A stretch of DNA of 64,000 nt, taken from NCBI GenBank assembly GCA_030390025.1, contig CM059432.1:7378001-7442000 (forward strand), given 5' to 3'. The first letter of the stretch is position 1, and each line of letters opens with the position of its first letter. Both the position numbers and the translations under genes were made by a program. Of this stretch, positions 7,504 through 55,447 are shown piece by piece. The stretch comes from Squalus acanthias. Its lineage: Eukaryota. Below the pieces are notes generated by a model, which was not told the DNA's origin, did not search any database, and saw nothing but the letters and a program-made list of their open reading frames with translations.

Positions 7504-9414
7504 AAAGCCCTAGAGGAGTATAGAAGGTGCAGGTGTGTACTTAAAAAAGAAATTAGGAGAGCGAAGAGGGGGCATGAAAAAACACTGGCGGGCAAAATAA
7601 AGGAAAATCCCAAGGTGTTTTATAAGTATATTAAGGGCAAGAGGATAACCAGGGGAAGAGTAGGGCCCATTAGGGACCAAAGTGGCAATCTGTGTGTAGA
7701 GCCTAAAGATGTAGGTGAGGTTTTAAATGAATATTTTGCATCTGCGTTCACTATGGAGAAGGACGATGTAGGCATAGAAATCAGGCAGGGGGATTGTGAT
7801 ATACTTGAACAAATTAGCATTGAGAGGGAGGAGGTACTAGCGGTTTTAGCGGGCTTAAAAGTGGATAAATCCCCAGGCCCAGATGAGATGTATCCCAGGC
7901 TGCTGTGTGAGGCAAGGGAGGAGATTGCAGGGGCTCTGACACAAATTTTCAGATACTCTCTGGCCACAGGAGAGGTGCCAGAGGACTGGAGGACAGCTAA
8001 CGTAGTACCATTATTCAAGAAGGGTAGTAGGGATAAACCAGGGAATTCCAGGCCAGTGAGCCTAACATCAGTGGTAGGGAAATTATCGGAAAGAATTAGT
8101 CTCCACTTGGAGAGGCAAGGATTAATCAAGAATAGTCAGCATGGCTTTGTCAGGGGAAGATCATGTCTAACCAAGTTAATTGAATTTTTCGAGGGGGTGA
8201 CTAGGTGTGTGGATGAGGGTAGTGCAGTTGATGTGGTCTACATGGACTTCAGTAAGGCTTTTGACAAAGTCCCGCATGGGAGACTGGTCAAGAAGGTAAG
8301 AGCCCATGGGATCCAGGGCAATTTGGCACATTGGATCCAAAATTGGCTTAGTGGCAGGAGGCAGAGGGTGATGGTCGAAGTTTGTTTTTGTGACTGGAAG
8401 CCTGTGTCAAGTGGTGTACTGCAGGGATCGGTGCTGGGTCCCTTGCTGTTTGTAGTGTACATTCATGATTTAGATATGAATGTAGGAGGTATGATCAGTA
8501 AGTTCGCAGATGACATGAAAATTGGTGGAGTGGTAAATAGCGAGGAGGGAAGCCTCAGGCTACAGGATGATATAGACGGGTTGGTCAGATGGACAGAACA
8601 GTGGCAAATGGAATTTAACCCTGAAAAGTGTGAGGTGATGCATTTTGGGAGGACTAACAAGGCAAGGGAATACACAATGAATGGTAGGACCCTAGGAAGG
8701 ACAGAGGATCAGAGGGACCTTGGTGTGCATGTAAATAGATCCCTGAAGGCAGCAGGACAGGTAGATAAGGTGGTTAAGAAGGCATATGGGATACTTGCCT
8801 TCATTAGCCGAGGCATAGAATATAAGAGCAGGGAGGTTATGATGGAGCTGTACAAAACGCTAGTTAGGCCACAGCTGGAATACTGTGTGCAGTTCTGGTC
8901 GCCACACTATAGGAAGGATGTGATTGCATTGGAGAGGTTGCAGAGGAGATTCACCAGGATGTTACCTGGGCTGGAGCGCTTCAGCTATGAAGAGAGACTG
9001 GACAGGCTGGGGTTGTTTTCCTTAGAGCAGAGAAGGCTGAGGGGGGACCTGATTGAGGTGTACAAAATTATGAGGGGCATAGATAGGGTAGATAGAAAGG
9101 AACTTTTCCCCTTAGTAGAGGGGTCAATAACCAGGGGGCATAGTTTCAAGGTAAGGGGCAGGAGGTTTAGAGGGGATTTGAGGAAAAATTTATTCACCCA
9201 GAGGGTGGTTGGAATCTGGAACTCACTGCCTGAAAGGGTGGAAGAGGCAGGAACCCTCACAACATTCAAGAAGCATTTAGATGAGCACTTGAAACGCCAT
9301 AGCATACAAGGCTAAGGACCAAGTGCTGGAAAATGGGATTAGAATAGGCAGGGCTTGATGGCCGGCGCGGACACGATGGGCTGAAGGGCCTCTTTCTGTG
9401 CTGTATAACTCTAT
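7504..9414 (+). mobile_element. CR1 LINE, 5' truncated
   Basis: Continuous ORF2 RT region and 3' tail ending in CTGTATAACTCTATGACT repeats. Confidence 0.93.
7615..9315 (+). CDS. CR1 ORF2 reverse transcriptase, C-terminal 566-aa open fragment lacking the endonuclease
   Basis: KSPGPD, SQHGF, DFSKAFD, QGSVLGP, KFADD, LEYCVQFW, RRLRGDLIEVYK motifs. Confidence 0.88.
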   Translation: MFYKYIKGKRITRGRVGPIRDQSGNLCVEPKDVGEVLNEYFASAFTMEKDDVGIEIRQGDCDILEQISIEREEVLAVLAGLKVDKSPGPDEMYPRLLCEAREEIAGALTQIFRYSLATGEVPEDWRTANVVPLFKKGSRDKPGNSRPVSLTSVVGKLSERISLHLERQGLIKNSQHGFVRGRSCLTKLIEFFEGVTRCVDEGSAVDVVYMDFSKAFDKVPHGRLVKKVRAHGIQGNLAHWIQNWLSGRRQRVMVEVCFCDWKPVSSGVLQGSVLGPLLFVVYIHDLDMNVGGMISKFADDMKIGGVVNSEEGSLRLQDDIDGLVRWTEQWQMEFNPEKCEVMHFGRTNKAREYTMNGRTLGRTEDQRDLGVHVNRSLKAAGQVDKVVKKAYGILAFISRGIEYKSREVMMELYKTLVRPQLEYCVQFWSPHYRKDVIALERLQRRFTRMLPGLERFSYEERLDRLGLFSLEQRRLRGDLIEVYKIMRGIDRVDRKELFPLVEGSITRGHSFKVRGRRFRGDLRKNLFTQRVVGIWNSLPERVEEAGTLTTFKKHLDEHLKRHSIQG

Positions 9415-10307
9415 GGGGGAGGAATTCAGTATCGCCCCATTTGGGGCGCAATTATCGGCCGGGCGCAAAGATTAGCGCCTGGCGCTAATTATCGCCACCG
9501 ACTGCAAACTTGACTTTTATCGCCCCTGGAGGTGATTGGAGCACTAAATCAGTCGCTTCACACCTGTCTTAAGGCGCAAAGGCCGAGGAGCGAGGCGCTA
9601 CCTCAGAGCGCTGGCGAAGCTCATGTGATGTCAGTCAGCAATGGAACACACACACAATGGCACGGGCCAGTTCTTAAAGGGGATGGTTAATCTTGCTTTC
9701 CATCCACACCCTGCTCATTGCAGCCTTGAATCTCGGCCTGGATGGACCTGCACATCAAATCTGCTGGAAAGAACAATGGAGAGTACCAGGCAAAGAGCTC
9801 AGAGTGCAGCCCCCACAGTCTCTTCAAAATCGATACAAAGAATGGCAAATCAAAATGAACCTGCAAAGTGCTGCTCAGTACCCAAAACTCCTTCACACAA
9901 CGTTGAATCTCTCCAGAAGTCTCTCTCTCTCTCTCTCAGAATGCGTGGTTCAAAAATGGCACCAACAATAAAAGGCAGGAAGCGGTCACCTTTAAATAGC
10001 GCTCCCCCTTTCCCTTCATGACTGCAAAACGCTCCCCTCAACCTGTCGTTGCTAGCGTCAGGCGGTAAGGCAGGGGGCGCCACTCAATATCCGCTCCAGG
10101 GCGATATCGGGGCGTTGCACACTCGACTGACGTCATGATCTGCCGGCGCAGGAGATTGTGGCGGTAGTGTTTAGCGCCGCCGCAAAATGTCTAGTTAATT
10201 TCGCGAGCGGCGCAAACTTCGCCGCGCCTGGGCGCTAGATGCTTTGCGCCCCATTAGCACCCTCTTAAGGCGCTAACTGGAGGCGCAACCAACTGAATTT
10301 TTCCCCC
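9415..10307 (+). mobile_element. Harbinger MITE, family A, copy 1
   Basis: TIR GGGGGAGGAATTCAG...CTGAATTTTTCCCCC; TSD TAT/TAT; ends match the 29479-33577 element. Confidence 0.93.
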
Positions 10308-11809
10308 TATGACTCTATGGGGAAGAAATTCAGTATCGCCCCATTTGGGGCGCAATTATCGGCCGGGCGCAAAGATTAGCGCCTGGCGCTAATTATCGCC
10401 ACCGACTGCAAACTTGACTTTTATCGCCCCTGGAGGTGATTGGAGCACTAAATCAGGCGCTTCGCACCTGTCTTAAGGCGCAAAGGCCGAGGAGCGAGGC
10501 GCTAACTCAGAGCGCTGGCGAAGCTCATGTGATGTCAGTTAGCAACGGAACACACACACAATGGCACGGGCCAGTTCTTAAAGGGGATGGTTGATCTTGC
10601 TTTCCATCCACATCCTGCTCATTGCAGCCTTGAATCTGGGCCTGGAGAGACCTGCACATCAAATCTGCTGGAAAGAACAATGGAGAGTACCAGGGAAAGA
10701 GCTCAGAGTGCAGCCCCCACAATCTCTTCTAAATCGATACAAGGAATGGCAAATCAAAATGAACCTGCAAAGTGCTGCTCAGTACCCAAAACTCCTTCAC
10801 ACAGCATTGAATCTCTCCAGAAGACTCTCTCCCTCTCTCTCAGAATGCGTGGTTCAAAAATGGCACCAACAATAAAAGGCAGGAAGCGGTCGCCTTTAAA
10901 TAGCGCTCCCCCAGTCCCTTCATGACTGCAGAATGCTCCCCTCAACATGTCGTTGCTAGCGGCAGGCGGTAAGGCAGGGGGCGCCACTCAATATCCGCTC
11001 CGGGGCGATACCGGGGCGTTGCGCACTCGACTGACGTCACGATCTGCCGGCGCAGGAGAACGTGGTGGTAGTGTTTAGTGCCGCCGCAAAGTGTCTAGTT
11101 AATTTCGCGAGCGGCGCAAACATCGCCGTGCCCGGGCGCTAGTTGCATTGCGCCCCATTAGCGCCCTCTTAAGGCGCTAATGTGTAAGGGGTTTTGTGTC
11201 GTGCTTGTATTGCAGACGGTGCTGGTGCGGGGTTAGGCCTTCGTTGCCTAATACTATTGCTTGCTCTGGTCTCCGGCCAGCCTTGTTGTAATAAGCACCT
11301 GTGAGTGGTTCGACCCACTCGCCCTTACGGTTCTAACACTGGACTTAGGTGCGAGAGCAGTAATGCAGAGAAAAACTCAAAATAGACCCGGTTGAATAGT
11401 ACGAAATGGAAATTTTTATTGCATAGCGTCCAAAATCATGAAGTACATGTCATAGGCACAAATTAACGATAGTACAAGTATACATACATTCATAAAGCTT
11501 GGTCTATGGTAATGAAGAACGCACGGCACATCGTAAAAAGGGGAACACATTATACTTTATCCTTAATAAAACCACCCTCCCTTATCAATACCTACACTAC
11601 ATCTAGATTTGTAGGATCGGGAAACATGCTCACCACTCGTGATACTTCGGAGAATTTTAAAGTGAGGCACTCGGCTCGTTTCGCTGCAGTGCCTGACTGT
11701 CACGTGTTTGGAGGGGCCTCTGTACCCCACTTGTTTACTTTCACTGCTGCTGCAAGCAGGCTGGGCTCCCCGTTGTCATGAAGAACTCGACAGTGCTCGG
11801 GCCCGGCTG

Positions 11810-11927
11810 TAGAACTCAAAGAAAAGTCTTCCTGGACCGACACCAGTTGCCGGTAGAATTCAAAGAAGAGTCTTCCTGTATCGACACCAGTTGTCGATAA
11901 AATTCGAGGAAGAGTCTATGACCAGTT
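11810..11927 (+). repeat. 44-bp tandem repeat (~2.7 units) inside the solo LTR
   Basis: TAGAAYTCAAAGAARAGTCTTCCTG...GACACCAGTTG units start at 11810, 11854 and 11898. Confidence 0.8.
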
Positions 11928-12274
11928 TGTGCAGTAACTGATAGAGTTCGTATAAATTTGGCGCGGTCGGGGTTTACTGACCGCGGCGGCACGTGGATTC
12001 TTCTTCTTCTCTTCTCATCTCGTCTCTTCGGGCCTTCGGGTCCAAAACACCGTTTACCGACACTCGGGATGGTGCACCCGGTTACTCGCCCTTCGTCGAG
12101 GTGGCTCGTCCCGATTGAGCTCCACCCAACATTCGAATAACCGTCCAGTGCGGCTAAAAGTCCAGAGTCAACAGAGAAGGCTGCTCGTCCAGCAGAGTTC
12201 AGCCCCAGTCAAGAGTTCGCAGAGATAAGAGAAAATAAGAGGAGACCGATGGACATTTGTTGTCTATAGTTATA

Positions 12275-13162
12275 GGGGGAAAAATTCAGTTGGTTGCGCC
12301 TCCCGTTAGTGCCTTAAGAGGGCGCTAATGGGGCGCAAAGCAGCTAGCGCCCGGGCGCAGCGAAGTTTGCGCCGCTCGAGAAATTAACTAGACATTTTGC
12401 GGCGGCGCTGAACACTACCGCCACGATCTCCTGCGCCGGCAGATCATGACGTCACTCGAGTGTGCAACGCCCCGGTATCGCCCCGGAGCGGATATTGAGT
12501 GGCGCCCCCTGCCTTACTGCCTGACGCTAGCAACAACAGGTTGAGGGGAGCGTTCTGGAGTCATGAAGGGAAAGGGGGAGCGCTATTTAAAGGTGACCGC
12601 TTCCTGCCTTTTATTGTTGGTGCCATTTTTGAACTACGCATTCTGAGAGAGAGAGGGAGAGACTTCTGGAGAGATTCAACGTTGTGTGAAGGAGTTTTGG
12701 GTACTGAGCAGCACTTTGCAGGTTCATTTTGATTTTCCTTGTATTGATTTAGCAGAAACTGTGGGGGCTGCACACTGAGCTCTTTGCCTGGTACTCTCCA
12801 TTGTTCTTTCCAGCACATTTGATGTGCAAGTCTCTCCAGGCCGAGATTCAAGGCTGCAATGAGTAGGATGTGGATGGAAAGCAAGATTAACCATCCCCTT
12901 TAAGAACTGGCCCGTGCCATTGTGTGTGTGTTCCATTGCTGACTGACATTACATGAGCTTCGCCAGCGCTCTGAGTTAGCGCCTCGCACCTCGCCCTTTG
13001 CGCCTTAAGACAGGTGTGCAGCGCCTGATTTAGCGCTCCAATCACCTCCAGGGGCGTTAAAAGTGAAGTTTCCAGTCAGTGGCGATAATTAGCGCCAGGC
13101 GCTAATTTTTGCGCCCGGACGATATTTGCGCCCCAAACGGGGCGCGACTGAATTTTTCCCCC
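12275..13162 (-). mobile_element. Harbinger MITE, family A, copy 3, nested in a solo LTR
   Basis: Reverse complement of copy 1; TIR GGGGGAAAAATTCAG; TSD ATA/ATA. Confidence 0.93.
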
Positions 13163-14689
13163 ATAGTGCTGTGTTCCCTTATCTCCCGCTCAAATCTTAA
13201 TGTTTGTCCTTTGTGAAATATTGGCGCTCAAAACTCCCAGCATGGGGTGATTCTTGTCTTTAACGGGTTTCGGTAGCACCTGAGACTGGCCAACTACCCG
13301 TTAATGTTTTCCCCATTGTTGAACCGGCTCGGAGCCTCCCTGGCTGGGTTTTGGGGGCCCCCGAATACTTGTTTAATCACCCGAGAATGGCTCTCTCATT
13401 GTAGAGCCGTGGGGGTATTTGCATATTGATGTGTCTGGATGGGCCTTCGATTGCCCAGTACAATGGTCCTTACTTGTGCATGGAAAACGATTCCAGCACT
13501 CATATCTTTTGCTATTGTCACAAATGCAAACAGGTTGCATCCTGTCTTTATCAGTGCTTATCGAAAATGTTTATTCGAACGCCATCTTGTCTGCCCACTG
13601 TACTTCTGGAAACTTCTGCCACGATGCGCGGCGGCCATTTTACAGGCTTCTGTGTCCTTTATATCATGACAGCATTTCGTTTAAATAAACTGATCAAACG
13701 AATCTGCTTCTATCTCGTTATTTCGAATCGCGATAATTGCGAAACTTTACAAATGGGACGTGCAACCAACTGAATTTTTCCCCCTATGACTCCCAAGGAT
13801 GTTGATAGTATTTTCAAATCAGGGTCAAGTTAATTAAAATTGTTAAATTGGAATAAAAGACTGTCTCATGTGAAACCGAAACAAGCCAATGTTCATTTTA
13901 TGCAGTGCTTTACAAAGCACGAAAGGAAAGAGAAACAAAGGCAGGATTGAAGCTTTTTCTCTCAACTACAATGAAGGGGTTAAGACAGGGAGAAAAGAGA
14001 AAAGATGGGTAAAAGAGTCACCAAAGATTGGTTGCTGACGGTTCTGCACCTGGAGATTAATCTATCGCGGTAACAATGCGTCCTAATGCTGTTGACATTG
14101 AGTCGTCCTTCTTGTGTTGGCATTTAACATAAAATTGAACGACAAACACAGAAGAGCACAACATCAAAAAGCAGTTCTCCAGAAGGAGCCCTCACTCGGG
14201 GAAAACATGCCGCATTCCTTCAACGAAGGAATATGAAAGGCACAGTGTTCCTGAAAATATTCACCGTATGCTGAACAGCGAGTTCCATTAACGACTATTA
14301 AACATGCAACCGTTAAGAAACCCTTGGCTCGGTGAAATGTTATTTTGTGCTGTGGAGGGGAGAGGTAGGAAGTGGTAATTACAGCATAATGATCGGGGGA
14401 ACAAATTAAATTGTCCAATTTTATTGCTTTGAGTAACAGTGGCGCACAGTTAGCAATGAAAATAATCTAAAAGAAGAGGTGAGGGAGTGCTAATGTTGAT
14501 ATATGGTGCAACATAGAATCCGTTACATGAATAATTTATGGCTGTAAAGCCCAAAATATGAATAAATCATGTCAGCTAGAAAACATATACAAATGTTCAA
14601 TAATGGGACAGTTTCTTTGCATCTGTAAGCAAGTAATGTAACAGATGCATACAAGCCTGTGAAGGAAATATGGTCTATTTGTGATGCAT

Positions 14690-22099: not shown

Positions 22100-25000
22100 A
22101 TTTTTAAAAATTCGATCCTGGGATGTGGGCGTCGCTGGCAAGGCCAGCATTTATCGCCCATCCATAATTGCCCTTGAGCAGGTGGTGGTGAGCCACCTTC
22201 TTGAACTGCTGCAGTCCGTGTGGTGAAGGTACTCCCACAGTGCTGTTAGGTAGGGAGTTCCAGGATTTTGACACAGTGACGATGAAGGATCGGCGATATA
22301 CTTCTAAGTCAGGATGGTGTGTAACCTGGAGGGGAACTTGGAGGTGGTGGTGTTCCCATGCGCCTGCTGCCCTTGTCCTTCTAGGTGGTGGAGATCGCGG
22401 GTTTGGGAGGTGCTGTCGAAGAAGCCTTGGCGAGTTGCTGCAGTGCATCTTGTAGACGGTACACACTGCAGCCACGATACGCCGGTGGTGGAGGGAGTGA
22501 ATGTTTAAGGTGGTGGATGGGGTGCCAATCAAGCGGGTTGCTTTGTCCTGGATGGTGTTGAGCTTCTTGAGTGTTGCTGGAGCTGCACTCATCCAGGCAA
22601 GTGGAAGGTATTCCATCATACTCCTAACATGTGCCTTGTAGATGGTGGGAAGGCTTTGGAGAGTCAGGAGGTGACACACTCGCCACAGAATACCCAGCCT
22701 CTGACCTGCTCTTGTTGCCACAGTATTTATGTGGCTGGTCCAGTTAAGTTTCTGGTCAATGGTGACCCCAGGATGTTGTGGTGGGGGATTCGGGTGATGC
22801 TGATGCCGTTGAATGTCAAGGGGCGGTGGTTAGACTCTCGTTTGCTGGAGATAGTCATCGCCTGGCAATTGTATGGCGCAAATGTTACCTGTCACTTATC
22901 AGTCCAAGCCCGAATGTCATCCAGGTCTTGGTGCATGCAGGCATGGACAGCTTCATTATCTGAGGAGTTGCGAATGGAACTGAACATTGTGCAGTCATCA
23001 GCGAACATCCCCACTTCTGACCTTATGATGGAGGGAAGGTCATTGATGAAGCAGCTGAAGATGGTTGGGCCTAGGACACTGCCCTGAGGAAGTCCTGCAG
23101 CGATGTCCTGGGGCTGAGATGATTGAGATCCAACAACCACAACCATCTTCCTTTGTGCTAGGTATGACTTCAGCTCAGTGGAGAGTTTCCCCCCCGATTC
23201 CCATTGACTTCAATTTTACTCTTTGATGCCAGACTCGGTCAAATGCTGCTTTGCTGTCAAGGGCAGTCACTCTCACCTCACCTCTGGAATTCAGCTCTTT
23301 TGTCCATGTTTGGACCAAGGCTGTAATGAGGTCTGGAGCTGAGTGGTCCTTGCAGAACCCAAACTGAGCAGGTTATTGGTGAGTAAGTCGATGACACCTT
23401 CAATCACTTTGCTGATGATTGAGAGTAGACTGATGGGGTGGTAATTGGCCGGTATGGATTTGACCTGCTTTTTGTGGACAGGACATACCTGGGCAGTTTT
23501 CCACATTGTCGGGTAGATGCCAGTGTTGTAGCTGTACTGGAACAGCTTGGCTAGAGGCGCGGCTAGTTCTAGAGCACAAGTCTTCAGCACGATAGCCAGG
23601 ATGTTGTCGGGGCCCATAGCCTTTGCTGTATCCAGTGTGCTCAGCCGTTTCTTGATATCACGTGGAGTGAATCGAATTGGCTGAAGACTGGCTTCTGTGA
23701 TGGTGGGGACCTCAGGAGGAGGCCGATATGGATCATCCACTCGGCACTTCTGGCTGAAGATGGTTGCAAATGCTTCAGCCTTGTCTTTTGCACTCGCGTG
23801 CTGTGCTCCGCCATCATTGAGGATGGGGATATTCATGGAGCCTCCTCCTCCCGTTAGTTGTTTAATGGTCCACCACCATTCACGATTGGATGTGGCAGGA
23901 CTGCAGAGCTTTGATCTGATCCATTGATTGTGGGATCGCTTAGCTCTGTCTATAGCATGCTGCTTCCGCTGTTTAGCATGCATGTAGTCCTGTCTTGCAG
24001 CTTTCCCAGGTTGGCACCTCATTTTTAGGTATGCCTGGTGCTGCTCCTGGCATGCTCTTCTGCACATCTCATTGAACCAGGGTTGGTTCCCTGGCTTGAT
24101 GGTAATGGTAGAGTGAGGGATATGCCGGGCCATGAGGTTACAGATTATGGTGAAATACATTTCTGCTGCTGCTGATGGCCCACAGCGCCTCATGGATGCC
24201 CAGTTTTGAGCTGCTAGTTCTGTTCTGAATCTATCCCATTTAGCACGGTGGTAGTGCCACACAACACAATGGAGGGTGTCCTCAGTGTGAAGACGGGACT
24301 TCATCTCCACTAGGACTGTGCGGTGGTCACTGCTACAAATACTGTCATGGACAGATGCATCTGCAACAGGTAGATTGGTGAGGATGAGGTCAAGTAGGTT
24401 TTTCCCTCGTGTTGGTTCTCTCACCACCTGCCACAGGTCCAGTCTGGCAGTTATGTCGTTCAGGACTCGGCCAGCTTGGTCAGTAGCGGTGCTACCGAGC
24501 CACTCTTGGCGATGGACATTGAAGTCCCCCACCTAGAGTACATTCTGTGCCCTTGTTACCCTCAGTGGCTCTTCCAAGTGGTGTTCAACATGGAGGAGTA
24601 CTGATTCATCAGCTGAGGAAGGGCGGTAGGTGGTAATCAGCAGGAGGTTTCCTTGCCCATTCTTGACCTGAAGCCATGAGATGACATGGGGTCCGGAGTC
24701 AATGTTGAGGACTCCCAGGGCCACTCCCTCCCGACTGTATACCACTGCGCTGCCACCCCTGGTGGATCTGTCCTGCCGGCGGGACAGGACATACCCGGTG
24801 ATGGTGATGGAGGATTCTGGGACGTGGTTGAAAGATATGATTCTGTGAGTATGACTATGTCAGGCTGTTGCTTGACTAGTCTGTGGGACAGCTCTCCCAA
24901 TTGTGACACAAGTCCTCAGATGTTGGTGAGGACGACTTTGCAGGGTCGACTGGGCTGGGCGTGCCTTTGTCGTGTCCGAAGCCGATGCCGGGTGGTCCGT

Positions 25001-27540: not shown

Positions 27541-27804
27541 CCTTTGGTAAGAGTAATAAGGAGATCACTTATTCCTTGGAAGGTAAGAAAGTAAATGGGG
27601 TAGAGGAGTAAAGAGATCTGAGAATGCAGGCACATAAGTCGCTAAAAGTAGCAACGCAATTTGATAAGGACATAAAGAGTGCAAAAAGGTACTGGGGTTC
27701 ATTTCTAGCGGAAAAGGATTCAAAAGCAGAGATGTAATTTTAAATTTATGTAGAACCTTGGTTAAACCACACTTGGAGTGTCATAAAATCCTTGGATTCT
27801 CCTA

Positions 27805-29475
27805 GAATCCTAGATTGGTTACAGCACAGAAGGAGGCCATTCGGCCCGTCGAGCCCGTGCCGGCTCTCTGCAAGAGCACTTCAGCTAGTCCCACTCCCCC
27901 GCCCTTTCCCCGTAGCCCTGCAAAATTTTTTCCTTCAGGTACTTATCCAATTCCCTTTTGAAAGCCGTGATTGAATCTGCCCCCACCACCCTTTCAGGCA
28001 GTGAATTCTAGATCCTAACTACTCGCTATGTAATAAAGTTTTTCCTCATGTCGTCTTTGGTTCTTTTGCCAATCACCTTAAATCTGTGTCCTCTGGTTCC
28101 GCCAATGGGAAGAGTTTCTCTCTATTTACTCTGTCTGGACCCCTCATGATTTTGAACACCTCTATCAAATCTCCTCTCAATCTTCTCTGCTCTAAGGAGA
28201 ACAACCCCATATTCTCCAGTCTATCCACGTAACTGAAGTCCCTCATCATAGAGTCATAGGGGTAGAAATTAGGTCGCGCCCCATTTGGGGCGCAAATATC
28301 GTCCGGACGCAAATATTAGCGCCTGGCGCTAATTATCGGCACTGACAGGAAACTTCACTTTTACCGCCCCGGGAGGTGAGTGGAGCGCTAAAGCAGGCGC
28401 TGCACACCTCTCTTAAGGCGCAAAGGCCGAGCAGTGAGGCGCTAACTCGGAGCGCTGGCGAAGCTCATGTAATGTCAGTCAGCAATGGAACACACACACA
28501 ATGGCACGGGCCAGTTCTTAAAGGGGATGGTTAATCTTGCTTTCCATCCACATCCTGTTCATTGCTGCCTTGAATCTCGGCCTGGAGAGACTTGCACATC
28601 AAATGTGCTGGAAAGAACAATGGAGCGTACGAGGCAAAGAGCTCAGAGTGCAGCTCCCACAGTCTCTGCTAAATCGATACAAGGAATGGCAAATCAAAAT
28701 GAACCTGCAAAGTGCTGCTCAGTACCCAAAACTCCTTCACACAACGTTGAATCTCTCCAGAAGTCTCTCCCTCTCTCTCTCAGAATGCGTAGTTCAAAAA
28801 TGCCACCAACAATAAAAGACAGGAAGAGGCCCCCTTTAAATAGCGCCCCCCCCAGCCCCACAGCGATTGATAGCGTTCCAGTCTTCTGGTCGTTGGAAGC
28901 GCCAGGCGGTAAGGCAGGGGGCGCCACTCAATTTCCACTACGGGGCGCCACAAGGGCGTTGCACCATGGAATGACGTCACAATCTGCGCGCGCAGGTGGT
29001 CGCAGCGGTAAGTTTTAGTGCCGCCGCACAATCTCAAGTTAAGTTCTCGAGCGGCGCAAACATCGCTGCGCCCGGGCGTTAGCGGCTCTGCGCCCCATTA
29101 GCGCCCTCTTAAGGCGCTAACGGGAGGCGCAACCAAGTGAATTTTTACCCCATAGAGTCATAGAGTTATACAGCACAGAAAAAGGCCCTTCGGCCCATCG
29201 TGTCCGCGCCGGCCATCAAGCCCAATCTATTCTAATCCCATTTTCCATCACTTGGTCCGTAGCCTTGTATGCTATGGCGTTTCAAGTGCTCATCTAAATG
29301 CTTCTTGAATGTTGTGAGGGTTCCTGCCTCGACCACCCTTTCAGGCAGTGAGTTCCAGATTCCAACCACCCTCTGGCTGAAAAAGTTTTTCCTCAAATCC
29401 CCTCTAAACCTCCTGCCTCTTACCTTGAAACTATGCCCCCTGGTTATTGACCCCTCTACTAAGGGGAAAAGTTCC
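27805..29475 (-). mobile_element. Two CR1 3' fragments (27805-28245; 28246-29475 split by MITE copy 4)
   Basis: LFSLEQRRLRGDLIEVFK; 29152-29475 is the reverse complement of ~9100-9414. Confidence 0.8.
28259..29151 (+). mobile_element. Harbinger MITE, family A, copy 4
   Basis: TIR GGGGTAGAAATT...AATTTTTACCCC; TSD ATA/ATA inside a CR1 tail repeat. Confidence 0.93.
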
Positions 29476-29989
29476 TATGGAAGAAAAATTCGGTTGGTTT
29501 GCGCCTCCCGTTAGCGCCTTAAGAGGGCGCTAATGGGGCGCAAAGCAACTTGCGCCCGGGCGCGGCGATGTCTGCACCGCTCGCGAAATTGACCAGACAT
29601 TTTGCGGCGGTGCTAAACAATACCGCCCCGATCTCCTGCGCCCACAGATCTTGACGTCAGTTGAGCGTGCAACGCCCTTGTGGCGCCCCGCACCGGATAT
29701 TGAGTGGTGCCCCCCTCCTTTCTGCCTGGCGCAAGCAATGACAGGGAGACTGGAACGTTTCCCAGTCGGTGTGGGGCTGGGGGGGGTGCAATTTAAAGGC
29801 GGCCTCTTCCTGGCTTTTTCTGTGGTAGACATTTTTGCACCACTCATTCTGACAGAGAGAGAGATTCTGAGACAGAAAAGGAGAGATTTCTGCATAGAGT
29901 CAACGCTGTGTGAAGTAGTTTTGGCTACTGAGCAGTACTTTGCAGGTACTTTTGGATTTGACCTTCATTACTTTGATTACCAAGAGACT

Positions 29990-31138
29990 TTGGGGGCTGC
30001 ACTGATTCGTGGCGTCATCCTGCGCCTGCAGAATCGGAGGCAACAGAGACGCAGAGAGAGAGTGGTAATCATGGCCAGACAGAGGAGGGCCAACAGGCCT
30101 CTGCACAGGAGACCTTACCCTCCCAGGGTATTTCGGCAACAATTCTCCTACATTAATTTGTCTGAGGAGCAGTGTTTGCGCAGGCTGCGCTTCAGCAAGG
30201 AGGTGGTCACTGAGCTCTGCCACCTGCTGCAGCCAGATCTGCAGCCTCAACTGAGGACCAGGACGTCTCTGTCGGTGGCAGTGAAGGTCACAGTGGCTCT
30301 GAACGTTTATGCCACCGGCTCCTTTCAAGCAGCTACTGGGAACAGCCAATATCTCCCAGTTCGCTGTCCATTGCTGCATCCGTCAGGTCACAAGTGCCCT
30401 CTATAAAAGGAGACGCCAGTACATCTCTTTCCCGATGACCCGGGCCAAACAGCATGAACGCGCATTGGGCTTTGCAAGGATAGCAGGCTTCCCCATGGTG
30501 CAGGGCACCATTGACTGCACGCATGTGGCATTGTGTGCACCGCATGAGAATGCAGAGGTTTTCCGCAACCGCAATGGGTTCCACTCCTTAAACGTCCAGT
30601 TGGTCTGTGACCACAGACAGCTGATACTCGCTGTCAATGCCCGCTATCCTGGCAGCAGCCACGATGCTTTCATCCTGCGCCAGACTGGTGTGCCAGAGCT
30701 TTTCCAGGCAGCGCATCAGCTAAGTGGTTGGCTCCTCGGGGACAAGGGTTAGTCACTGTGCACCTGGCTGATGACACCGCTCCGTAACCCCAACACCCCT
30801 GCTGAGCTGCGGTACAACGAGAGCCATCTCGCCACCAGGAACATCGTTGAGCAGACGATTGGCGTGCTCAAGCAACGGTTCCGCTGTCTGGACCACTCAG
30901 GAGGGGCCCTGCAGTACTCGCTTGAACGAGTCTCCCCCTTCATAGTTGTGTGCTGCATTCTTCATAACCTTGCAATCCTCAGGACCCAGCCAATGCCACC
31001 AGGCCTTGGAGCACCACCGGAGAGGAGGAGGAGGAAGAGGAGGAGGATGATCATCAGCAGCACCAAGGCGGGAGGGAGGACCACAATGTTGAAACTGCAA
31101 GGGCCGTCCGTCAACGGCTGATAACAAGCCGTTTCTAG
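29990..31138 (+). pseudogene. Harbinger DDE transposase (HARBI1-family nuclease), disrupted
   Basis: Joined ORFs 29651/30309/30771 give RRLRFSKE, YATGSFQ, GFPMVQGTIDCTH (D), ARYPGSSHDAFIL, WLLGDKG (D), RNIVEQTIGVLKQRFRCL (E), CCILHN. Lesions: TTG at the likely start (29990), frameshift near 30340, TAG at 30750-30752 where Tyr is expected, frameshift near 31020. Confidence 0.92.
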
Positions 31139-31382
31139 GCCCCTACAGAGGAACTGGCTTCTGGCATGGAGAACAACAGGAATGAAACCAACCCACAACC
31201 CCTAAGCCGGCCAAGGCAGCAATGATTCCAAAGGCCAAACCTGTACATTTTGAATACAAAATTTTTTTTATTTTACAAACTCTGTGTGTGTCATTTCTTC
31301 ATGACAAACTAATAGAAACAAACACAAAAAATCATTCATTAACATAACTGGTTCTCACAACCTGGAGATAATGGCCAAAACA

Positions 31383-33216
31383 CTAAACAAAAGTGTGAAC
31401 ACGAATCTCGGCCTTTAATAAAAAATTGACCAACATTTCGTCACACCTCCTACTTTTGCCCTTCAAGGGTGATCTCCTTCCCTTGCGCACTTCCCCCCTT
31501 CCCACCCTACTGCTCCTCCGTAATGGGGCCCCAGTGGCTGCAGCAAGGGTGGTGGAAGGCTGCTGATTGTCAGAACCTGAGACTGCAGATGCCCTTGAAG
31601 GACGGCCTCGACCAGCTCTGGGCCTGGAGGGCCTGGCTGCAGACTGCACCAACTCTGCATGGGCGGCAGCAGTCTGGGCTACAGGCGGTGGCAAGTGCAG
31701 TGGAGAAGTGACAGTGGTGGCAGCAGGAATGCTGTCATCTTGAGAGAGGACAGCAACTCCCTGCTCGACCGACACACTGGCACTCCCACGGGGCAGCACA
31801 TCAGCATCTGAGCAATCTGCTGGAGCACAGATTGCTGGCCTGCTGCGGCGCGGTGAGAGCCCCGGGGAAATGTGTCCGAACCAGCGACAATGGCAGCAGT
31901 CAGTGCTCGCGTGGCCTCAATCTGAGTCTGCATGAGAGCAGTCTGAGATTGGATCACGGCAGCCAGTGACTGAATTGCAGCACTAAGTTTTAGCGTGGCA
32001 TCCGCCTGTGCTACAGCGTAGTGCTCCACACTCCTTGCCAGTGCATCAATGCATTCGGGCACCCTTCCCACTGCACCCATGAGCTGAGTGTGCATGTCCA
32101 CCGCCTGGGTGTTCATTTCAGCGATGAGCCGCTCCTCCTCTGCGTCCAGTGCAGCAGGACTCGCTGGCCTACTCTCCCTCTGGGGAGAAGGCCCCCGAGC
32201 TTCCCTACCCCCATCGCGTTGCTGCAGCCCGCTGGGTCCCGGAGCTTCACCCTCATCAGACCCTTCCCCCCCTGCTCCCCTCCAGGGAAGACGTGTTCCC
32301 AGTGTGGGCATGGGCTTCCTCGGGAGAGGGTGGCGCTGATGCTCCATCTTCCTCTTCCTCCTTGCCTGCAGCTTCACTCCCACTGGCAGCTTGAGGGCCC
32401 GTCTCCTCAGCTGGTGAATCACCATCTGAAAGCAGGGAGGTACAAGAGTGGCTTTAGCGTGAGGACAGGGGGGGGCAGTAAGGGAGGAATGAGTGCAGCG
32501 ATTTAGTAAGTTGGATTGAAAGTGTCAAAAGCTGGTGTTGTGAGGGACAAGTGCAATGAGAGAGGAGAGAAAGCTGATGACCTTACCATTGCTGTCCCGA
32601 ATGGGGTCGGCCTCTCCAGGGGCGACGGGACCGATCACCTGGCTTACCACAATCCTGTGGACGCGTGCCTCAAGATCGCTGAGGGGTTGCAGCTGAGGCC
32701 GCCCTCCACCCGTCCGTTGCTGCTGTCTCCTGTTATGAGATAGCTTGGCCTGCAAGAAAAAGGACGGCGTCTGAGTAAATATACAGCCATGGTCTTGTCT
32801 GATGTGCCTCCCATAGTTGAATAGCCCTTACTGTATGCAAAGTGTGGAATGTGCGTGTGTGTTTAATGAGATGGCCATAGATCTTGGATGAGTGTTGGGC
32901 ATTGGGGTTTTAAGACCCTCTGGCCATAGTGTGAGGTTGAGATGGAGGGATGGAGAGGTATTGAAAAAAAGCCACTCACCCTGATGACCCGAGTGAGGTC
33001 GTTGAACTTTTTGCGACATTGAGTATGGGTCCTGGGCACCATGCTCCTGGAGGAGACGTGCTGAGCCACCTCCCTCCACACTCTTCTGTAATCGCGCGGC
33101 AAAGGCCTCCTGCCACTCTCAGGGAAGAGTATAGATCTTCTGCGCTCCACTGCACCAACCAGAGCCTCCAAGGCCCACTCGCTGAAGCGCTGAGCTCGTT
33201 CTCTCACCCTCTCCAT
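31383..33216 (-). pseudogene. Harbinger Myb/SANT-like DNA-binding protein gene, three exons, frameshifted
   Basis: Exon 1 33216-32980 (MERVRERAQRFSEWALEALV...VWREVAQHVS...RTHTQCRKKFNDL; donor GTGAGT). Exon 2 32749-32587 (AKLSHNRRQQQRTGGG; ttgcag acceptor, GTAAGG donor). Exon 3 starts 32425 (tttcag acceptor) with acidic, coiled-coil-like and basic segments; frameshifts near 32270 and 31800. Intron phases 0 and 1 are consistent. Confidence 0.85.
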
Positions 33217-34244
33217 AGTCCTTGGCTGGAAAATGTAGTCACAGGTCTCCCCAGGCCGAGATTCAAGGATCCAATGAGCAGGGTATGGCTGGAGAGCAAG
33301 ATTGACCCTCCCATTTAAGAACTGTCCGTTGCCAGTGTGTCTGTGTTCCATCGCTAACTGACATCACCTGCGCTGCGCCCGCGCTCTGAGGTAGCGCCTC
33401 ACTCCTCGGCCTTTGCGCCTTAAGAGAGGTGTGCAGCGCCTGATTTAGCGCTCCAATCACCTCCAGGGGCGATAAAATCCAAGTTTGCAGTCGAAGGCGA
33501 TAATTAGCGCCAGGCGCTAAACTTTGCGCCCGGCCGATAAACGCGCCCCAAACGGGGCGATGCCAAATTTCTCCCCCTGTGACTTTCTCATTGCACGAAA
33601 TAACTCCGAAAAAATGAGAGCACTAGACAACAAAAAAATGCAATTCACATTTTAAAATCAATTTATGATTGAAACAACCTTAAGCACAAATATTTTCCCT
33701 TTGAGATAATAAGGGGGTTGATTTTGACTTGGTGCAAAATGCGAGATAGCAAATTGGCATTGCCTGCGATGGATATTAAAATGGGGAGGGATGTAAAATG
33801 GGCTGCTGACTCGCTATCACCGATTTCACAGCATTGCTCAAAGTCAACATCGACCGCCAAAGTGTTTTTTCACAGGGTACATTTCTGAATTTATTAAAAG
33901 TTTTCCGCGTCCCTGAGAGATTTTTCTTCATTATTTCACTGTCAACCAAACAGTTCCATCTGCAAGCTGAAATGTCACCAAGATAAAGCCGGTGCTTTCC
34001 TTGCTCATTCTCCAGTGATGGGTTTTGAAAAATAGAGAAAAGCTGATTTTTGTGATTAATAACTGTGGTGAACACTGTCAAAGGGACAATCACGCTTCAT
34101 GATATCACAACGCAGTTGGTTTTATATCTATTTAGGGCCCTTGAGGAGGAGGCAAACGTTGGTCCTGATATCTCCCCGCACGCCAGCTGATCTGCTGTGG
34201 GGTTAACGCAGTTTTCAGGTGTGGGGAGCAAGGGTTTGCTGGGA

Positions 34245-36816: not shown

Positions 36817-38225
36817 ACATAGAAACATAGAAACATAGAAGATAGGAGCAGGAGTAGGCCATTCGGCCCCTCGAGCCTGCTCCGCCATTCAAAGAGATCA
36901 TGGCTGATCATCCAAATTCAGTACCCTGTCCCTGCCTTCTCCCCATATCCCTTGATCCCTTTAGCTTTAAGAAATATATCTAACTCCTTCTTGAATATAT
37001 TTAATGAATTGACCTCAACTGCCTTCTGTGGTAGAGAATTCCACAGGTTCACCACTCTCTGGGTGAAGAAATTCCTCCTCATCTCAGTCCTAAATGGCTT
37101 ACCCCTTATCCTTAGACTGTGACCCCTGGTTCTGGACTCCCCGGCCATCGGGAACATCCTTCCTGCATCTAGTCTGTCTAGTCCTGTTAGAATTTTATAA
37201 GTTTCAATGAGATACCCTCTCATTCTTCTAAACTCCAGCGAGTATAAGCTCAATCGACCCAATCTCTCCTCATACGTCATTCCTGCCATCCCAGGTATCA
37301 GCCTGGTGAATCTTCGCTGCACTCCGTCCATGGCAAGAACATCCTTCCTCAGATAAGGCGACCAAAACTGCACACAATACTCAAGGTGTGGTTTCACCAA
37401 GGCCCTGTACAACTGCAGCAAGACATCCTTGTTCCTGTACTCGAACCCTTTCGCTATGAAGGCCAACATACCATTTGCCTTCTTAACCGCCTGCTGTACC
37501 TGCATGCTTACCTTCAGCGACTGGTGCACAAGGACACCCAGGTCTCGTTGCACTTCCCCTTCTCCCAATCTATTGCCATTCAGATAATAATCTGCCTTCC
37601 TGTTTTTGCCACCGAAGTGGATAACCTCGCATTTATCCACATTATATTGCATCTGCCATGCATCTGCCCAATCACCCAACCTGTCCAAATCATCCTGGAG
37701 TTTCTCTGCATCCTCCTCACGGCACACACTCCCACCCAGCTTTGTGTCGTCTGCAAACTTGGAGATATTACATCCAATTCCCTCGTCTAGATCATTAATA
37801 TATATTGTGAATAGCTGGGGTCCTAGGACCGATCCCTGCGGTACCCCACTAGTCACTGCCTGCCACTTGGAAAAAGACCCGTTTATTCCAACTCTTTGCT
37901 TTCTGTCTGCCAACCAGTTCTCTATCCAAGTCAATACCTTGCCCCCAATCCCATGTGCCTTAACTTTACACGCTAATCTCTTATGCGGGACCTTATCGAA
38001 AGCCTTCTGAAAGTCCAAATACACCACATCCACTGGTTCTCCCTTATCTATTCTACCAGTTACATCCTCACAAAATTCCAGCAGATTAGTCAAGTACGAT
38101 TTACCTTTTGTAAATCCATGTTGACTTTGTCCGATCCTGTCACTGTTTTTCAAGTGCTCTGCTATTACATCTTTTATAATGGACTCTAGCATTTTCCCCA
38201 CTACCAATGTCAGGCTTACCGGTCT
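36817..38225 (-). mobile_element. CR1 LINE 3' fragment with open RT frame
   Basis: RPVSLT...FADD...LEYCVQFW in ORF 36918-38375; CATAGAAA tail. Confidence 0.92.
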
Positions 38226-38782
38226 TTCGATGTAATATAAGGTCCCGAAACATGGCTGGAGATAGTAGCAGATGGATGTCTGATTTGCTCCTTTCATGTT
38301 CTTTTGTCCACTCTCTATTCCTCTGAATCTGGCCTTCAGGGTATCCCACCACATCCCACCCCTCCACCCCACCATTGGCAGCCGTACCTTCAGTCACCCA
38401 GGCTCGATGCTCTGGAATTCCCTCCCAAAACCCCTCCACCTCCCTTTCCCGCTTTCAAAAACCCTCCTTTTTTCCACCAAGCTTTTGGTCGCCCTGTTCC
38501 TAATGTCTCCCACCTTGGCGCAGAAACCGAATTTTTGTTCCGAACACATCAACGGAGTGTGTTGGGGCTATTTCGCTCCCTTAAAGGCACTGGAAAAATG
38601 CAAATTGTTGCTGTTGTTGGTTTGTGCTCCCATCCCTCATCTCGCTATCCAGCTCCAGCATTCTCACCACACTGCACAGCACACTCCAATCCCACATCAC
38701 CGATACATCCCGTCACATCCTCAAAGCAAGGTGAGAAACCTGCGGTGTGACATTAACAAAGGCTTTGCTAATCGGTAGGATG

Positions 38783-40417: not shown

Positions 40418-41310
40418 GGGGTAGAAATTAGGTCGCGCCCCATTTGGGGCGCAAATATCGTCCGGACGCAAATATTAGCGCCTGGCGCTAATTATCGGCA
40501 CTGACAGGAAACTTCACTTTTACCGCCCCGGGAGGTGAGTGGAGCGCTAAAGCAGGCGCTGCACACCTCTCTTAAGGCGCAAACGCCGAGCAGTGAGGCG
40601 CTAACTCGGAGCGCTGGCGAAGCTCATGTAATGTCAGTCAGCAATGGAACACACACACAATGGCACGGGCCAGTTCTTAAAGGGGATGGTTAATCTTGCT
40701 TTCCATCCACATCCTGTTCATTGCTGCCTTGAATCTCGGCCTGGAGAGACTTGCACATCAAATGTGCTGGAAAGAACAATGGAGAGTACCAGGCAAAGAG
40801 CTCAGAGTGCAGCTCCCACAGTCTCTGCTAAATCGATACAAGGAATGGCAAATCAAAATGAACCTGCAAAGTGCTGCTCAGTACCCAAAACTCCTACACA
40901 CAACGTTGAATCTCTCCAGAAGTCTCTCCCTCTCTCTCTCAGAATGCGTAGTTCAAAAATGCCACCAACAATAAAAGACAGGAAGAGGCCCCCTTTAAAT
41001 AGCGCCCCCCCCAGCCCCACAGCGATTGATAGCGTTCCAGTCTTCTGGTCATTGGAAGCGCCAGGCGGTAAGGCAGGGGGCGCCACTCAATTTCCGCTAT
41101 GGGGCGCCACAAGGGCGTTGCACCAAGGAATGACGTCACAATCTGCGCGCGCAGGTGGTCGCAGCGGTAAGTTTTAGTGCCGCCGCACAATCTCAAGTTA
41201 AGTTCTCGAGCGGCGCAAACATCGCTGCGCCCGGGCGTTAGCGGCTTTGCGCCCCATTAGCGCCCTCTTAAGGCGCTAACGGGAGGCGCAACCAAGTGAA
41301 TTTTTACCCC
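40418..41310 (+). mobile_element. Harbinger MITE, family A, copy 5
   Basis: TSD TTA/TTA; nearly identical to copy 4. Confidence 0.93.
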
Positions 41311-48683: not shown

Positions 48684-49574
48684 GGGGGAAAAATTCAGTA
48701 TCGCCCCATTTGGGGCGCAATTATCGGCTGGGCGCAAAGATTAGCGCCTGACGCTAATTATCGCCTCCGACTGCAAACTTGGCTTTTATCGCCCCTGGAG
48801 GTGATTGGAGCGCTAAATCAGGTGCTTCACACCTGTCTTGGGGGCAAAGGCCGAGGAGCGAGGCGCTACCTCAGAGCGCTGGCGAAGCTCATGTGATGTC
48901 AGTCAGCAATGGAACACAGACACACTGGCCCCGGCCAGTTCTTAAAGGGGAGGGTTGATCTTGCTCTCCATCCACATCCTGCTCATTGCAGCCTTGAATC
49001 TCGGCCTGGAGAGACCTGTACATCAAATCTGCTGGAAAGAACAATGGAGAGGCCCAGGGAAAGAGCTCAGAGTGCAGCCCCCACAGTCTCTTCTAAATAG
49101 ATGCAAGGAAAGGCAAATCAAAATGAACCTGCAAAGTGCTGCTCAGTACCCAAAACTCCTTCACACAGCATTGAATGTCTCCAGGAGTCTCTCTCTCTCT
49201 CTCTCAGAATGCGTGGTGCAAAAATGTCACCAACAAAAAAAGGCAGGAAGCGTTCGCCTTTAAATAGCGCTCCCCCAGTCCCTTCCTGACTGTAAAACGC
49301 TCCCCTCAACCTGTCGTTGCTAGCGGCAGGCGGTAAGGCAGGGGGCACCACTCAATATCGGCTCCGGGGCGCTACCGGGGCGTTGCGCACTCGACTGATG
49401 TCACGATCTGCCGGTGCAGGAGATCGTGGTGGTAGTGTTTAGCGCTGCCGCAAAATGTCTAGTTAATTTCGCGAGCGGCGTAACATCGCCGCGCCCAGGC
49501 GCTAGTTGCTTTGCGCCCCATTAGCGCCCTCTTAAGGCGCTAACAGGAGGCGCAACCAACTGAATTTTCCCCCC
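48684..49574 (+). mobile_element. Harbinger MITE, family A, copy 6
   Basis: TIR GGGGGAAAAATTCA...TGAATTTTCCCCCC; TSD AGA/AGA inside a CR1 3' end. Confidence 0.92.
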
Positions 49575-52910: not shown

Positions 52911-53467
52911 TTGTAGCAGTCCGTATCCTAACAACCCTCTACATAAGAATAAAACTCCTAACCTCGCCCTGTGTCGTTTCTTAAATTTTTGTCCTCTACT
53001 TACTGACTTACTGACCAGTGGAAATAACTTCTAGCAATTGATTTTATCAAAATTTCTCACAATTTTGAACATCTGTATCAGATCTCCTTCTATGTTGTAA
53101 TAGAAGGAGCCTCCGTTTCTCTAGTCTTTCCTCACAGCTAAAGCCTTTCATCACTTCGTAAATCTCCTCAGTATCCGCTTCATGGTCTTGACAGCCTTCC
53201 TAAATTAAGGCACCCAAAACTTGAACAATATTCCAACTGTAGCCTAATCAATAATACAACGTCCATGAATCAGACGCTTCCTCCAAGAGGGTGCTTTGCT
53301 TAAAACAGAAAAGATGTGCTGGAAAGCATTTGAAATCAATCCAACCAGGATTTTCCGCAGCTGTTGAAACTCAGGCCTATTAGTTCTACAGACTTTCTGA
53401 ACTTAAAACTTTCTGCATCTTTTATATCACAACAACTTGCATTTATAGAGCGCCTTTAACGTAGTAA

Positions 53468-53973
53468 AACTTGGCTCGCGCCCCCTGACCTACGGCCGGA
53501 CGCTATGTCCGACAGGGTCAGGGGGGGCGTTCTTGCGGCCGGATCGGCGATAATTAAAGGGCAGGTACCAGGCGGCCATTTTTTTTTAGGCCGCTTGCCA
53601 GCACCTGCCCCCTCTCGCCCCCCCCTCTTGTGGGGTGCCGGCCGCGATCCGTCTTTTGCCGGCACCCCCGCTCCCCGGTGGTCCAGCAGGGCCCCGGTGT
53701 GCGCTGGGCTCGGCCCCTCCTCTTTAATCAGGGGAGGGAGGCCTGCAGTACCACGGCGCTACGTGCCGACGTGCGTGGCGTAGCGCCGCGATATTCCATG
53801 GGAGCACCCCAAGAGGGATGGGAACGCTCCCAGTAGCGCCCCGCCTCCTGCTTGGGGCGCTACCATTCAATTTTGGGCACGGGGCGGGGGGACGTTAACA
53901 TTTTTGGGGCGCTAAAAGTAGCGCCCCGGCGAAGTTAGCAGCCCAAAGGGGGCGCGAGCCAAGCTTTCCCCCC
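53468..53973 (-). mobile_element. Truncated Harbinger-type MITE related to family B, inside an L2 fragment
   Basis: Shares the CTGACC/GTCGGAC hairpin and interior with family B; inverted CTTGGCTCGCGCCCCC/GGGGGCGCGAGCCAAG; one terminal TTTCCCCCC. Confidence 0.75.
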
Positions 53974-54845: not shown

Positions 54846-55447
54846 GGCGGAAAAAATCGGTGTCGCCCCATTTGAGGCACTAATTTTAGCGCCCGAAAAA
54901 ATTAGCGTCCCCTCCGCCGGAAATTCAGTTCTAGCGCCCCCAGCAGGAGGTGGAGCGCTACTGGAAGCGCTGCTTGGGCCGCTACAACTGAATATCGCGG
55001 CATTACGTGCAACAGCGCCGCGTCATTGCAGGCCTCCCTCCCCTGATTAAAGGGGAGGGGACCTAGCACTGCTCGCACCGGGGCCCTGCTGGACCACTGG
55101 CGAGCGGGCTGCCGGGAAAACAGCCCGGCAGTCCGAAGAAAAAAGGGGGAAGGGGGCAGGCGCTGGCAGTCGGCCAAAAAAAAATGGCCGCCCAACACCT
55201 GCCCTTTAAGTAGCGCCGACGCGGCTGCAATAACGCCACCCCCCTGACCCTGTCGGACATATCGTCCGGCGATAGGTCAGAGGGCGCAAGCGAAGTTTGC
55301 TCCGGGGCGCTGCGCACGGCGATGATGTCATTGGCGGCGGTGCAGAGCCGTGGGGCGCTACCGGCTACAGCTAAACTCCCACTGAATTTCGCGGGAGGCG
55401 CTAGCGGCGCCGCCCCTGAGGGCACAAATCAACCCAATTTTTCCCCC
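54846..55447 (+). mobile_element. Harbinger-type MITE, family B
   Basis: TIR resembles family A (GGCGGAAAAAAT...ATTTTTCCCCC); TSD ATT/ATT; interior differs from family A. Confidence 0.85.

Follow-up and report, generated by a model that had tools for sequence, protein, structure and literature searches.

A dead Harbinger copy and six probably mosaic MITEs in the Squalus acanthias genome belong to a lineage likely mobile until very recently

A two-gene Harbinger element and its miniature relatives

A 64,000-nucleotide stretch of the Squalus acanthias genome (assembly GCA_030390025.1, contig CM059432.1, positions 7,378,001 to 7,442,000 of the forward strand; hereafter the window) contains a full-length, two-gene transposable element of the PIF/Harbinger type at positions 29479-33577 on the + strand. 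The element is 4,099 bp long and is bounded by 14-bp imperfect terminal inverted repeats (TIRs), the left one at 29479-29492 (+), with two substitutions relative to those of its relatives, and the right one at 33564-33577 (-); the TIRs of the family are 14 bp long and begin with GGGG. The flanking triplets, TAT at 29476-29478 and TGT at 33578-33580, are the likely copies of a 3-bp target duplication and are one base short of a perfect match. With about 3% divergence from the majority sequence of its subfamily, here termed A1, this is a dead, older copy of a cut-and-paste family.

The element carries two convergent genes. The transposase gene (29990-31138, +) starts at a TTG at 29990 that is an ATG in younger copies, with the first ATG of the window copy at 30071, and encodes the catalytic residues D (30513), D (30741) and E (30849). 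Pfam detects DDE_Tnp_4 on the + strand in two pieces (E 1.7e-15 and 1.2e-13), while natural intact copies match the same profile with E values of 1.5e-36 and 5.2e-38 over positions 1-158. Alignment with 28 relatives locates two frameshifts (-2 near 30344 and +2 near 31021) and one stop (TAG at 30750-30752). The best protein relatives of the intact transposase all come from sharks and rays, reach at most 69% identity and are annotated 'putative nuclease HARBI1'; a search by sequence among solved structures gave no match to the transposase. On the - strand lies a Myb/SANT gene consisting of exon 1 (32980-33216), which includes a Myb_DNA-bind_5 domain (E 1.8e-9), exon 2 (32587-32749) and exon 3 (31450-32425), the last with three frameshifts relative to the 28 relatives (+1 near 32271, -1 near 31809 and -1 near 31455). 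Across 29 aligned copies, both acceptors read AG in all 29 and the donors read GT in 28 and 27; the predicted spliced product of intact copies is 458-488 amino acids long.

Two length variants were observed within this gene. A 54-bp unit in intron 1 (window 32780-32840) varies in tandem number among copies, the window copy having the short form, and an in-frame duplication of approximately 87 bases in exon 3 of L266, L268 and other youngest copies lengthens their protein to 486-488 amino acids.

The sequence-only reading of this locus had proposed a TIR-bounded 4.1-kb element from a cartilaginous-fish Harbinger family, with a DDE transposase and a convergent three-exon Myb/SANT-like gene bearing few lesions. 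The TIRs, the matches to both profile hidden Markov models, the aligned splice sites, the three lesions in each gene and the shark and ray affinities of the protein all agree with it. Its further description of six elements of about 890 bp built from the two ends of the large one is equally accurate.

These six are MITEs (miniature inverted-repeat transposable elements) of 888-893 bp, and each is flanked by a perfect 3-bp duplication. Every one consists of about 505 nt of the left end and 388 nt of the right end of the large element, joined at one junction common to all six, with 78-79.5% identity to the window element on the left and 84-88% on the right. M1 (9415-10307, -) and M2 (10319-13784, -) have old-type ends and lie 11 nt apart, M1 in the 3' tail of a long interspersed nuclear element (LINE) with the duplication TAT, and M2 split by a 2,576-bp insertion (11184-13759). 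M3 (12275-13162, +) lies inside that insertion and has a mostly old left end and a new-type outer right end. M4 (28259-29151, -), also in a LINE tail, is of a very young type in which an old core is combined with two ends of the young autonomous type; M5 (40418-41310, -) is of the young type and 99% identical to M4, and M6 (48684-49574, -) is the oldest, with ends like those of A1. Between M4 and the large element remains a LINE 3' fragment (29152-29478, -), the octamer tail of which served as the target of M4 and which shares 96% identity with the tail of the LINE at 7504-9415 that encodes RVT_1. The MITEs are thus short, non-coding and flanked by 3-bp duplications, with TIRs common to an autonomous partner and a high copy number, as is characteristic of Tourist-like MITEs.

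Family size, age layers and natural intact copies

The searched genome comprises 3.7 Gb, and copy counts obtained from exact patterns are lower bounds, with reversed-pattern controls returning 0. A 20-mer of the transposase has 8,429 exact matches genome-wide, the youngest right end has 3,159 and the MITE junction has 12,997. Three layers of autonomous copies were sampled; the samples are small, at 10-37 copies each, and majority sequences serve as proxies for the masters. The A1 layer comprises 29 aligned copies out of the 39 relatives that best match the window copy; these lie 2-5.6% from their majority, and no pair differs by less than 3%. One A1 relative with a differing right end led to subfamily A2, of which 40 elements were fetched; five had no left end and one had a false one, and the 34 complete at both ends lie 0.5-1.5% from their majority. 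The youngest subfamily, A3, was reached by a pattern carrying the terminus of M4, and 37 of the 40 elements fetched have both ends. Perfect duplications flank 20 of 32 sites in A1, 28 of 34 in A2 and 30 of 37 in A3.

Open reading frames become common towards the young end of this series. Both genes are open in 2 of 28 A1 copies, in 7 of the 34 A2 copies and in 21 of the 37 A3 copies, where the transposase is open in 31 and the Myb gene in 23; excluding two with a damaged or unaligned donor, 19 A3 copies are open in both. A genome-wide search for full-length copies with intact frames, which the sequence-only reading had recommended, therefore succeeds, and the reconstruction of an active element that it had envisaged is unneeded. 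Rebuilding from the window copy is beside the point, given how common younger natural copies open in both genes are. Two A3 copies, L266 and L268, are identical at 4,288 of 4,288 aligned bases although they reside 18 Mb apart in different flanking sequence; they differ by a 162-base indel corresponding to three 54-bp units of Myb intron 1.

A nested ladder of subfamilies with an apparently selected trunk

A tree of the transposase region orders the subfamilies as A1, A2 and A3, with shrinking tips. As the A1, A2 and A3 sets had been picked by similarity, a second sample was drawn by chromosome position. In the 28 of 30 position-ordered copies that were long enough, derived states accumulate in a nested manner at 73 and 51 diagnostic sites, both gaps contain intermediates, and terminal branch length drops with depth (rho -0.82, p 9e-8). 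Along the trunk of this ladder, the ratio of nonsynonymous to synonymous substitution rates (dN/dS) is 0.22 in the transposase core and 0.23 in the Myb domain, and approximately 1 in the transposase N-terminus and the Myb tail. Outside CpG sites, nonsynonymous and synonymous changes number 34:41 on the trunk versus 165:67 among private changes (p 8e-5), the latter being near neutral. Judged from these sequence comparisons, the transposase core appears to have evolved under purifying selection along the trunk of one nested ladder.

The trunk is also fast. Over the same span, change in the transposase region amounts to 0.17 on the trunk versus 0.021 in inserted copies, and to 0.084 versus approximately 0.006 for the second comparison, so that the trunk accumulated about 3-13 times the change seen in inserted copies. 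From A1 to the youngest copies, change outside CpG reaches 23% at four-fold sites of the transposase and 12-18% in the ends, whereas introns (4-6%), Myb exon 3 at its four-fold sites (4.8%) and the MITE core (3%) changed less; A1 copies themselves lie 1.5-2.8% from their majority outside CpG. A slow block running from Myb intron 1 to exon 3 (32426-32979 and 31450-32425) shows 4-7% trunk change, well below the ends and the transposase, for which a lagging recombinant block and an absence of selection for change are both candidate explanations.

Trunk and private changes differ in spectrum as well. The trunk spectrum is flat, with 96 transitions and 191 transversions, whereas private changes are rich in C>T, with 450 transitions and 299 transversions (p 1e-14); for the A2 to A3 step alone the difference is not significant (p 0.07). 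The transversion contrast persists at four-fold and non-coding sites and recurs in a second Harbinger family described below. The idea that every new copy is born with transversions was rejected, since private changes of the youngest copies are rich in C>T (14 transitions and 4 transversions), and those of the MITEs number 19 and 10. Many rounds of error-prone repair, escape from silencing, recombination and passage through another host are all candidates for the origin of the fast trunk.

MITE cores and ends have different histories

The young MITEs do not share one history along their length. M4-type MITEs (n = 30, including M4) differ by 0-6 bases in 893, all 30 have perfect duplications, and four are identical at separate loci. 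In the outer left end of M4 (320 nt), 41 of the 43 sites that distinguish A1 from A2 are in the A2 state. States specific to old MITEs are retained by M4 at only 1 of 18 sites in this outer left end, versus 16 of 18 and 27 of 30 sites in the core. Old and young MITEs correspondingly differ at 59 of 320 positions in the outer left end and 18 of 143 in the outer right end, compared with 11 of 370 in the core. Since states shared by A1 and A2 took the place of MITE-specific ones, the donor of the new ends was an autonomous element.

Of 30 position-ordered MITEs, 29 retain both ends; these are old in 7, new in 20 and partially replaced in 2. One left crossover is common to 19 position-ordered MITEs, another occurs in L288, and M3 is new mainly at its right end. 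After the swap, MITE ends acquire A3-specific states stepwise, which suggests repeated exchange, in either direction. Recombination also affects autonomous copies, as L065 combines an A1 body with an A2 right end. The young MITEs are therefore likely mosaics in which one old core is joined at sharp crossovers to ends from younger autonomous subfamilies. A second young Harbinger family, recovered with a Pfam family search, was considered as the direct source of the ends and rejected, as it has 47% protein identity to the window family and no match to M4. A search for an autonomous parent of the core with one degenerate pattern, allowing 1 mismatch, turned up no such parent; by their matched letters its 6 matches resemble variants of the MITE junction.

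The sequence-only reading had assigned the large element its own MITE family. The kinship holds, as both belong to the same lineage, but the MITEs are not deletion products of the window copy or of A1; they are mosaics built on an older core.

Target sites and clustering in LINE tails

At 103 distinct sites, the family inserted into an A/T-rich triplet at the centre of a loose 17-bp palindrome, approximately AARASWY-www-RWSTYTT. A occupies position -5 in 87% of sites and T position +5 in 93%, C occupies -2 in 63% and G occupies +2 in 77%, and A at -7 and T at +7 are also preferred. Among the duplications, TAT (20), ATA (14), TTA (10) and TAA (7) are found, along with a single CTG. The octamer tail of an abundant LINE, which we take to be CR1, accounts for 15 of the 103 sites and is the source of part of the TAT and ATA excess; M1, M2 and M4 all reside in such tails, and Pfam finds RVT_1 in the LINE copy at 7504-9415. 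A family neighbour lies within 400 nt at 19 of 176 loci, versus an expectation of 0.5-1.4%; 12 of these are in the same orientation, often with a spacing of 11 or 160 nt. Further hot spots exist beyond the LINE tail, where independent-looking copies of different subfamilies occupy the same base of other repeats (L040, L043 and L250; L082, L087, L094, L187 and L300; L037 and L081).

A probably persistent lineage and the alternatives to it

We consider it probable, at roughly 0.8, that the window element is a dead old copy of a Harbinger lineage that has persisted within this genome and was likely mobile until very recently, and that the six MITEs are gene-less parasites with an old core and ends likely renewed by recombination. 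Transposition in known Harbinger systems requires both proteins, and the Myb protein binds the element ends (PMC2836001, PMC9392472). By analogy with work on Harbinger3_DR and mPing, the Myb protein encoded here would bind the ends and recruit the transposase, which would cut and paste the element, and both proteins would act in trans on the MITEs. The octamer tail of the abundant LINE would supply adjacent targets and thereby let copies accumulate in tandem. New ends could then be joined to an old MITE core either by a deletion spanning two tandem copies or by template switching during gap repair. Expression limited at any one time to a few young copies free of silencing would provide the purifying selection seen on the trunk.

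Expression offers a further line of evidence. In contigs from three of four probable RNA runs, belonging to two studies and placed on a young copy, exon 2 is joined to exon 3 with 159 bases removed between GT and AG, and these bases are the predicted Myb intron 2 (1396-1554 of L268). For this joint, contigs over window positions 27700-34100 serve as a partial DNA control only.

Several observations weigh against this interpretation. The RNA status of the four runs is a guess, as none is recorded as RNA; their contigs mix many copies, so that the expressed copy is not identifiable, and splicing of intron 1 was not seen in them. A check for polymorphism in four runs over 27700-34100 drew on contigs swamped by other copies, and of 234 joints the 15 listed include no clean case of an empty site. 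The identity of L266 and L268 is no proof of activity today, because at a shark mutation rate of 7e-10 per generation, measured in another shark (PMC10587355), zero differences over 4,288 bases are compatible with up to about 500,000 generations. Single open-frame A1 copies have dN/dS of 0.21-0.63 against their majority, a result that we put down to the choice of open frames and to differences between sub-lineages, and which leaves the singleton comparison as the one that supports selection on the trunk. The route of end exchange is unobserved and its direction is settled for the first swap only, and the fast, transversion-rich trunk is unexplained by persistence in place.

The same slow mutation rate would let a recently extinct family look intact in its youngest copies, and most A3 pairs do differ by at least 4 bases; no polymorphic insertion is seen among the joints listed. 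Such an extinction is nonetheless rather unlikely, given a ladder that is free of gaps down to near-zero terminal branches, young MITEs with 0-6 differences in 893 bases, four of them identical at separate loci, and spliced Myb sequence in probable RNA runs; from the sequences, the family was likely mobile until very recently, and activity in the present day is what they suggest. It is barely credible, by comparison, that the MITEs are simple deletion products of the window element or A1 and that an active version must be rebuilt from such copies. The MITEs do consist of two ends joined at one point, and M1, M2 and M6 do have A1-like outer ends, but A1 copies lie only 2-5.6% from their majority, whereas the MITE core is only about 63-93% identical to A1 per 60-column window. 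Moreover, one junction is found across all MITEs, with old and new end types alike, and natural intact copies exist; for the MITE core this alternative is already refuted.

What drove the trunk is less certain than that the lineage persisted. A survey of 307 vertebrate genomes describes DNA transposons as evolving neutrally inside a genome, with purifying selection acting over the course of horizontal transfers (PMC7070016). We tentatively propose, as a possibility short of an even chance, a DNA transposon resembling LINE-1 in its mode of evolution: one master that has changed in situ under purifying selection, at several times the pace of the host clock and with a flat, transversion-rich spectrum arising from a silencing arms race or from transposition-linked mutation, with intact copies mobile today and a MITE repeatedly capturing the ends of the master. 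Another alternative, which we hold to be unlikely, attributes the trunk changes to selection for escape from sequence-based host silencing, whether by small RNAs or by DNA-binding repressors; transversions would then be favoured in the ends and the transposase mRNA, and introns would be spared. Change at transposase four-fold sites (23%) and in the ends (12-18%) does exceed that in introns (4-6%) and the MITE core (3%), and four-fold and non-coding sites alike show the transversion excess. Myb exon 3 is likewise part of an mRNA, yet only 4.8% of its four-fold sites changed, and the same regional pattern would arise if the slow block had recombined with lagging copies. If instead the master changed while residing in a different host or a vector, subject to another mutation process, and entered this germline again many times, a fast, transversion-rich and selected trunk would be explained without selection within the genome. 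The findings of the vertebrate survey and the difference between trunk and private spectra point in that direction, as does the presence of sequence words of the youngest copy (L268:301-4588) in runs of six coded organisms, at shares of 0.47-0.9. We regard such re-entry as decidedly improbable, because inflow would have to be almost continuous to leave the many small nested steps kept as inserted copies, the best-matching proteins are all from sharks and rays, the gene-less MITE follows the same steps, and in the two other organisms checked the young copy appears at very low depth only, so far giving no evidence of transfer.

Other elements in the window and the genome

The second, very young Harbinger family (L100-L129) has open frames of 391 amino acids and 47% protein identity to the window family; many of its copies differ at 0-2 of 459 bases, and a first look with Pfam counted 63,886 candidates genome-wide. 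Its trunk is also transversion-rich, with 20 transitions to 45 transversions. Within the window, a 602-bp TIR element at 54846-55447 with a perfect ATT duplication represents another Harbinger-like MITE family, with relatives at about 58783-59251 (TIR at 59251) and at 53467-53972. The insertion at 11184-13759 that splits M2 and contains M3 has no long frame, and its first 250 bases are 81% similar to 59640-59871. A 396-amino-acid frame at 60059-61249 has no Pfam match at E 0.001, and the start of its sequence presumably resembles a reverse transcriptase motif of the Penelope-like kind. LINE fragments at 6302-9315, 23291-24532 and 36918-38393 match RVT_1 or an endonuclease. No host gene was found among the five tested window frames of at least 150 amino acids.

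Comparison with known systems

In structure, the family conforms to PIF/Harbinger in the broad sense (PHIS): a DDE_Tnp_4 transposase with its catalytic triad, a separate Myb/SANT gene, TIRs with a 3-bp duplication and an extended palindromic target. With 8,429 transposase matches, TIRs and duplications, it is unlike a domesticated HARBI1 or NAIF1 gene, which would be single-copy, without TIRs and at a conserved locus. It likewise differs from the elasmobranch 'putative nuclease HARBI1' proteins that are its top matches (46-69% identity, none above 69%) in that the gene lies within a TIR-bounded, high-copy element.

The target duplication fits none of the TWA, CWG and TNA groups cleanly. The TWA duplication of the strict PIF/Harbinger group (PMC4482050) is found at 17 of 103 sites, and the CWG duplication of the NuwaI and Harbinger3_DR type at 1 of 103. 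NuwaII, a PHIS element that also has DDE and Myb/SANT genes, targets C|TNA|G (PMC4482050); in the shark family C and G frame the duplication at most sites, but the TNA core occurs at 20 of 103, and these likenesses imply no clade placement.

Compared by description, the closest parallel in organization is zebrafish Harbinger3_DR with its non-autonomous partner Harbinger3N_DR (as cited in PMC3016246, PMC2836001 and PMC9392472), which has the same combination of a DDE transposase, a Myb-like gene, TIRs and a 3-bp duplication, and an extended palindromic target close in style (AAACACCWGGTCTTT there; PMC3016246). That element was reconstructed, whereas open-frame copies occur naturally here, and the duplication is W-rich rather than CWG. 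The mPing/Ping/Pong system of rice provides functional parallels in its Tourist-like MITE, two trans-acting proteins, cross-mobilization by a related element and extended target (PMC2836001), which by analogy may extend to the shark family; mPing is described there as a plain deletion product of Ping, whereas the shark MITE is probably a mosaic on an older core. Closer in this respect are Galileo subfamily E and the X-E-X chimeras in Drosophila mojavensis, where one central region carries termini of different subfamilies, as explained by ectopic recombination or conversion (PMC3573991). Galileo belongs to another superfamily and about 170 copies are involved, whereas the shark MITE core is present in at least 12,997 copies with ends that follow successive steps of the ladder.

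For cartilaginous fishes, one study reports PHIS elements as absent from sharks (PMC4482050), and another reports Harbinger as absent from the elephant shark and calls for study of other cartilaginous fishes (PMC9179366). The Squalus family answers this call and contradicts the reported absence, although the Harbinger superfamily is already listed in the genome papers of the whale shark and the grey reef shark (PMC8455134, PMC12498223). In the literature searched, outside which lay most subscription papers and the supplements whose shark repeat libraries may include the family, neither a shark Harbinger family nor repeated MITE end capture nor a fast, transversion-rich trunk is described. The anatomy of the element is that of an ordinary Harbinger; the interest of the family resides in its natural intact young copies, its end-tracking MITE and its L1-like ladder with a fast trunk. 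Such a nested ladder with apparent trunk selection runs counter to the neutral within-genome evolution described for DNA transposons (PMC7070016). The natural intact gene pairs permit a two-plasmid test without reconstruction, and the ends, Myb domains and MITEs of the family form an ordered series suited to testing how a parasite tracks its helper.

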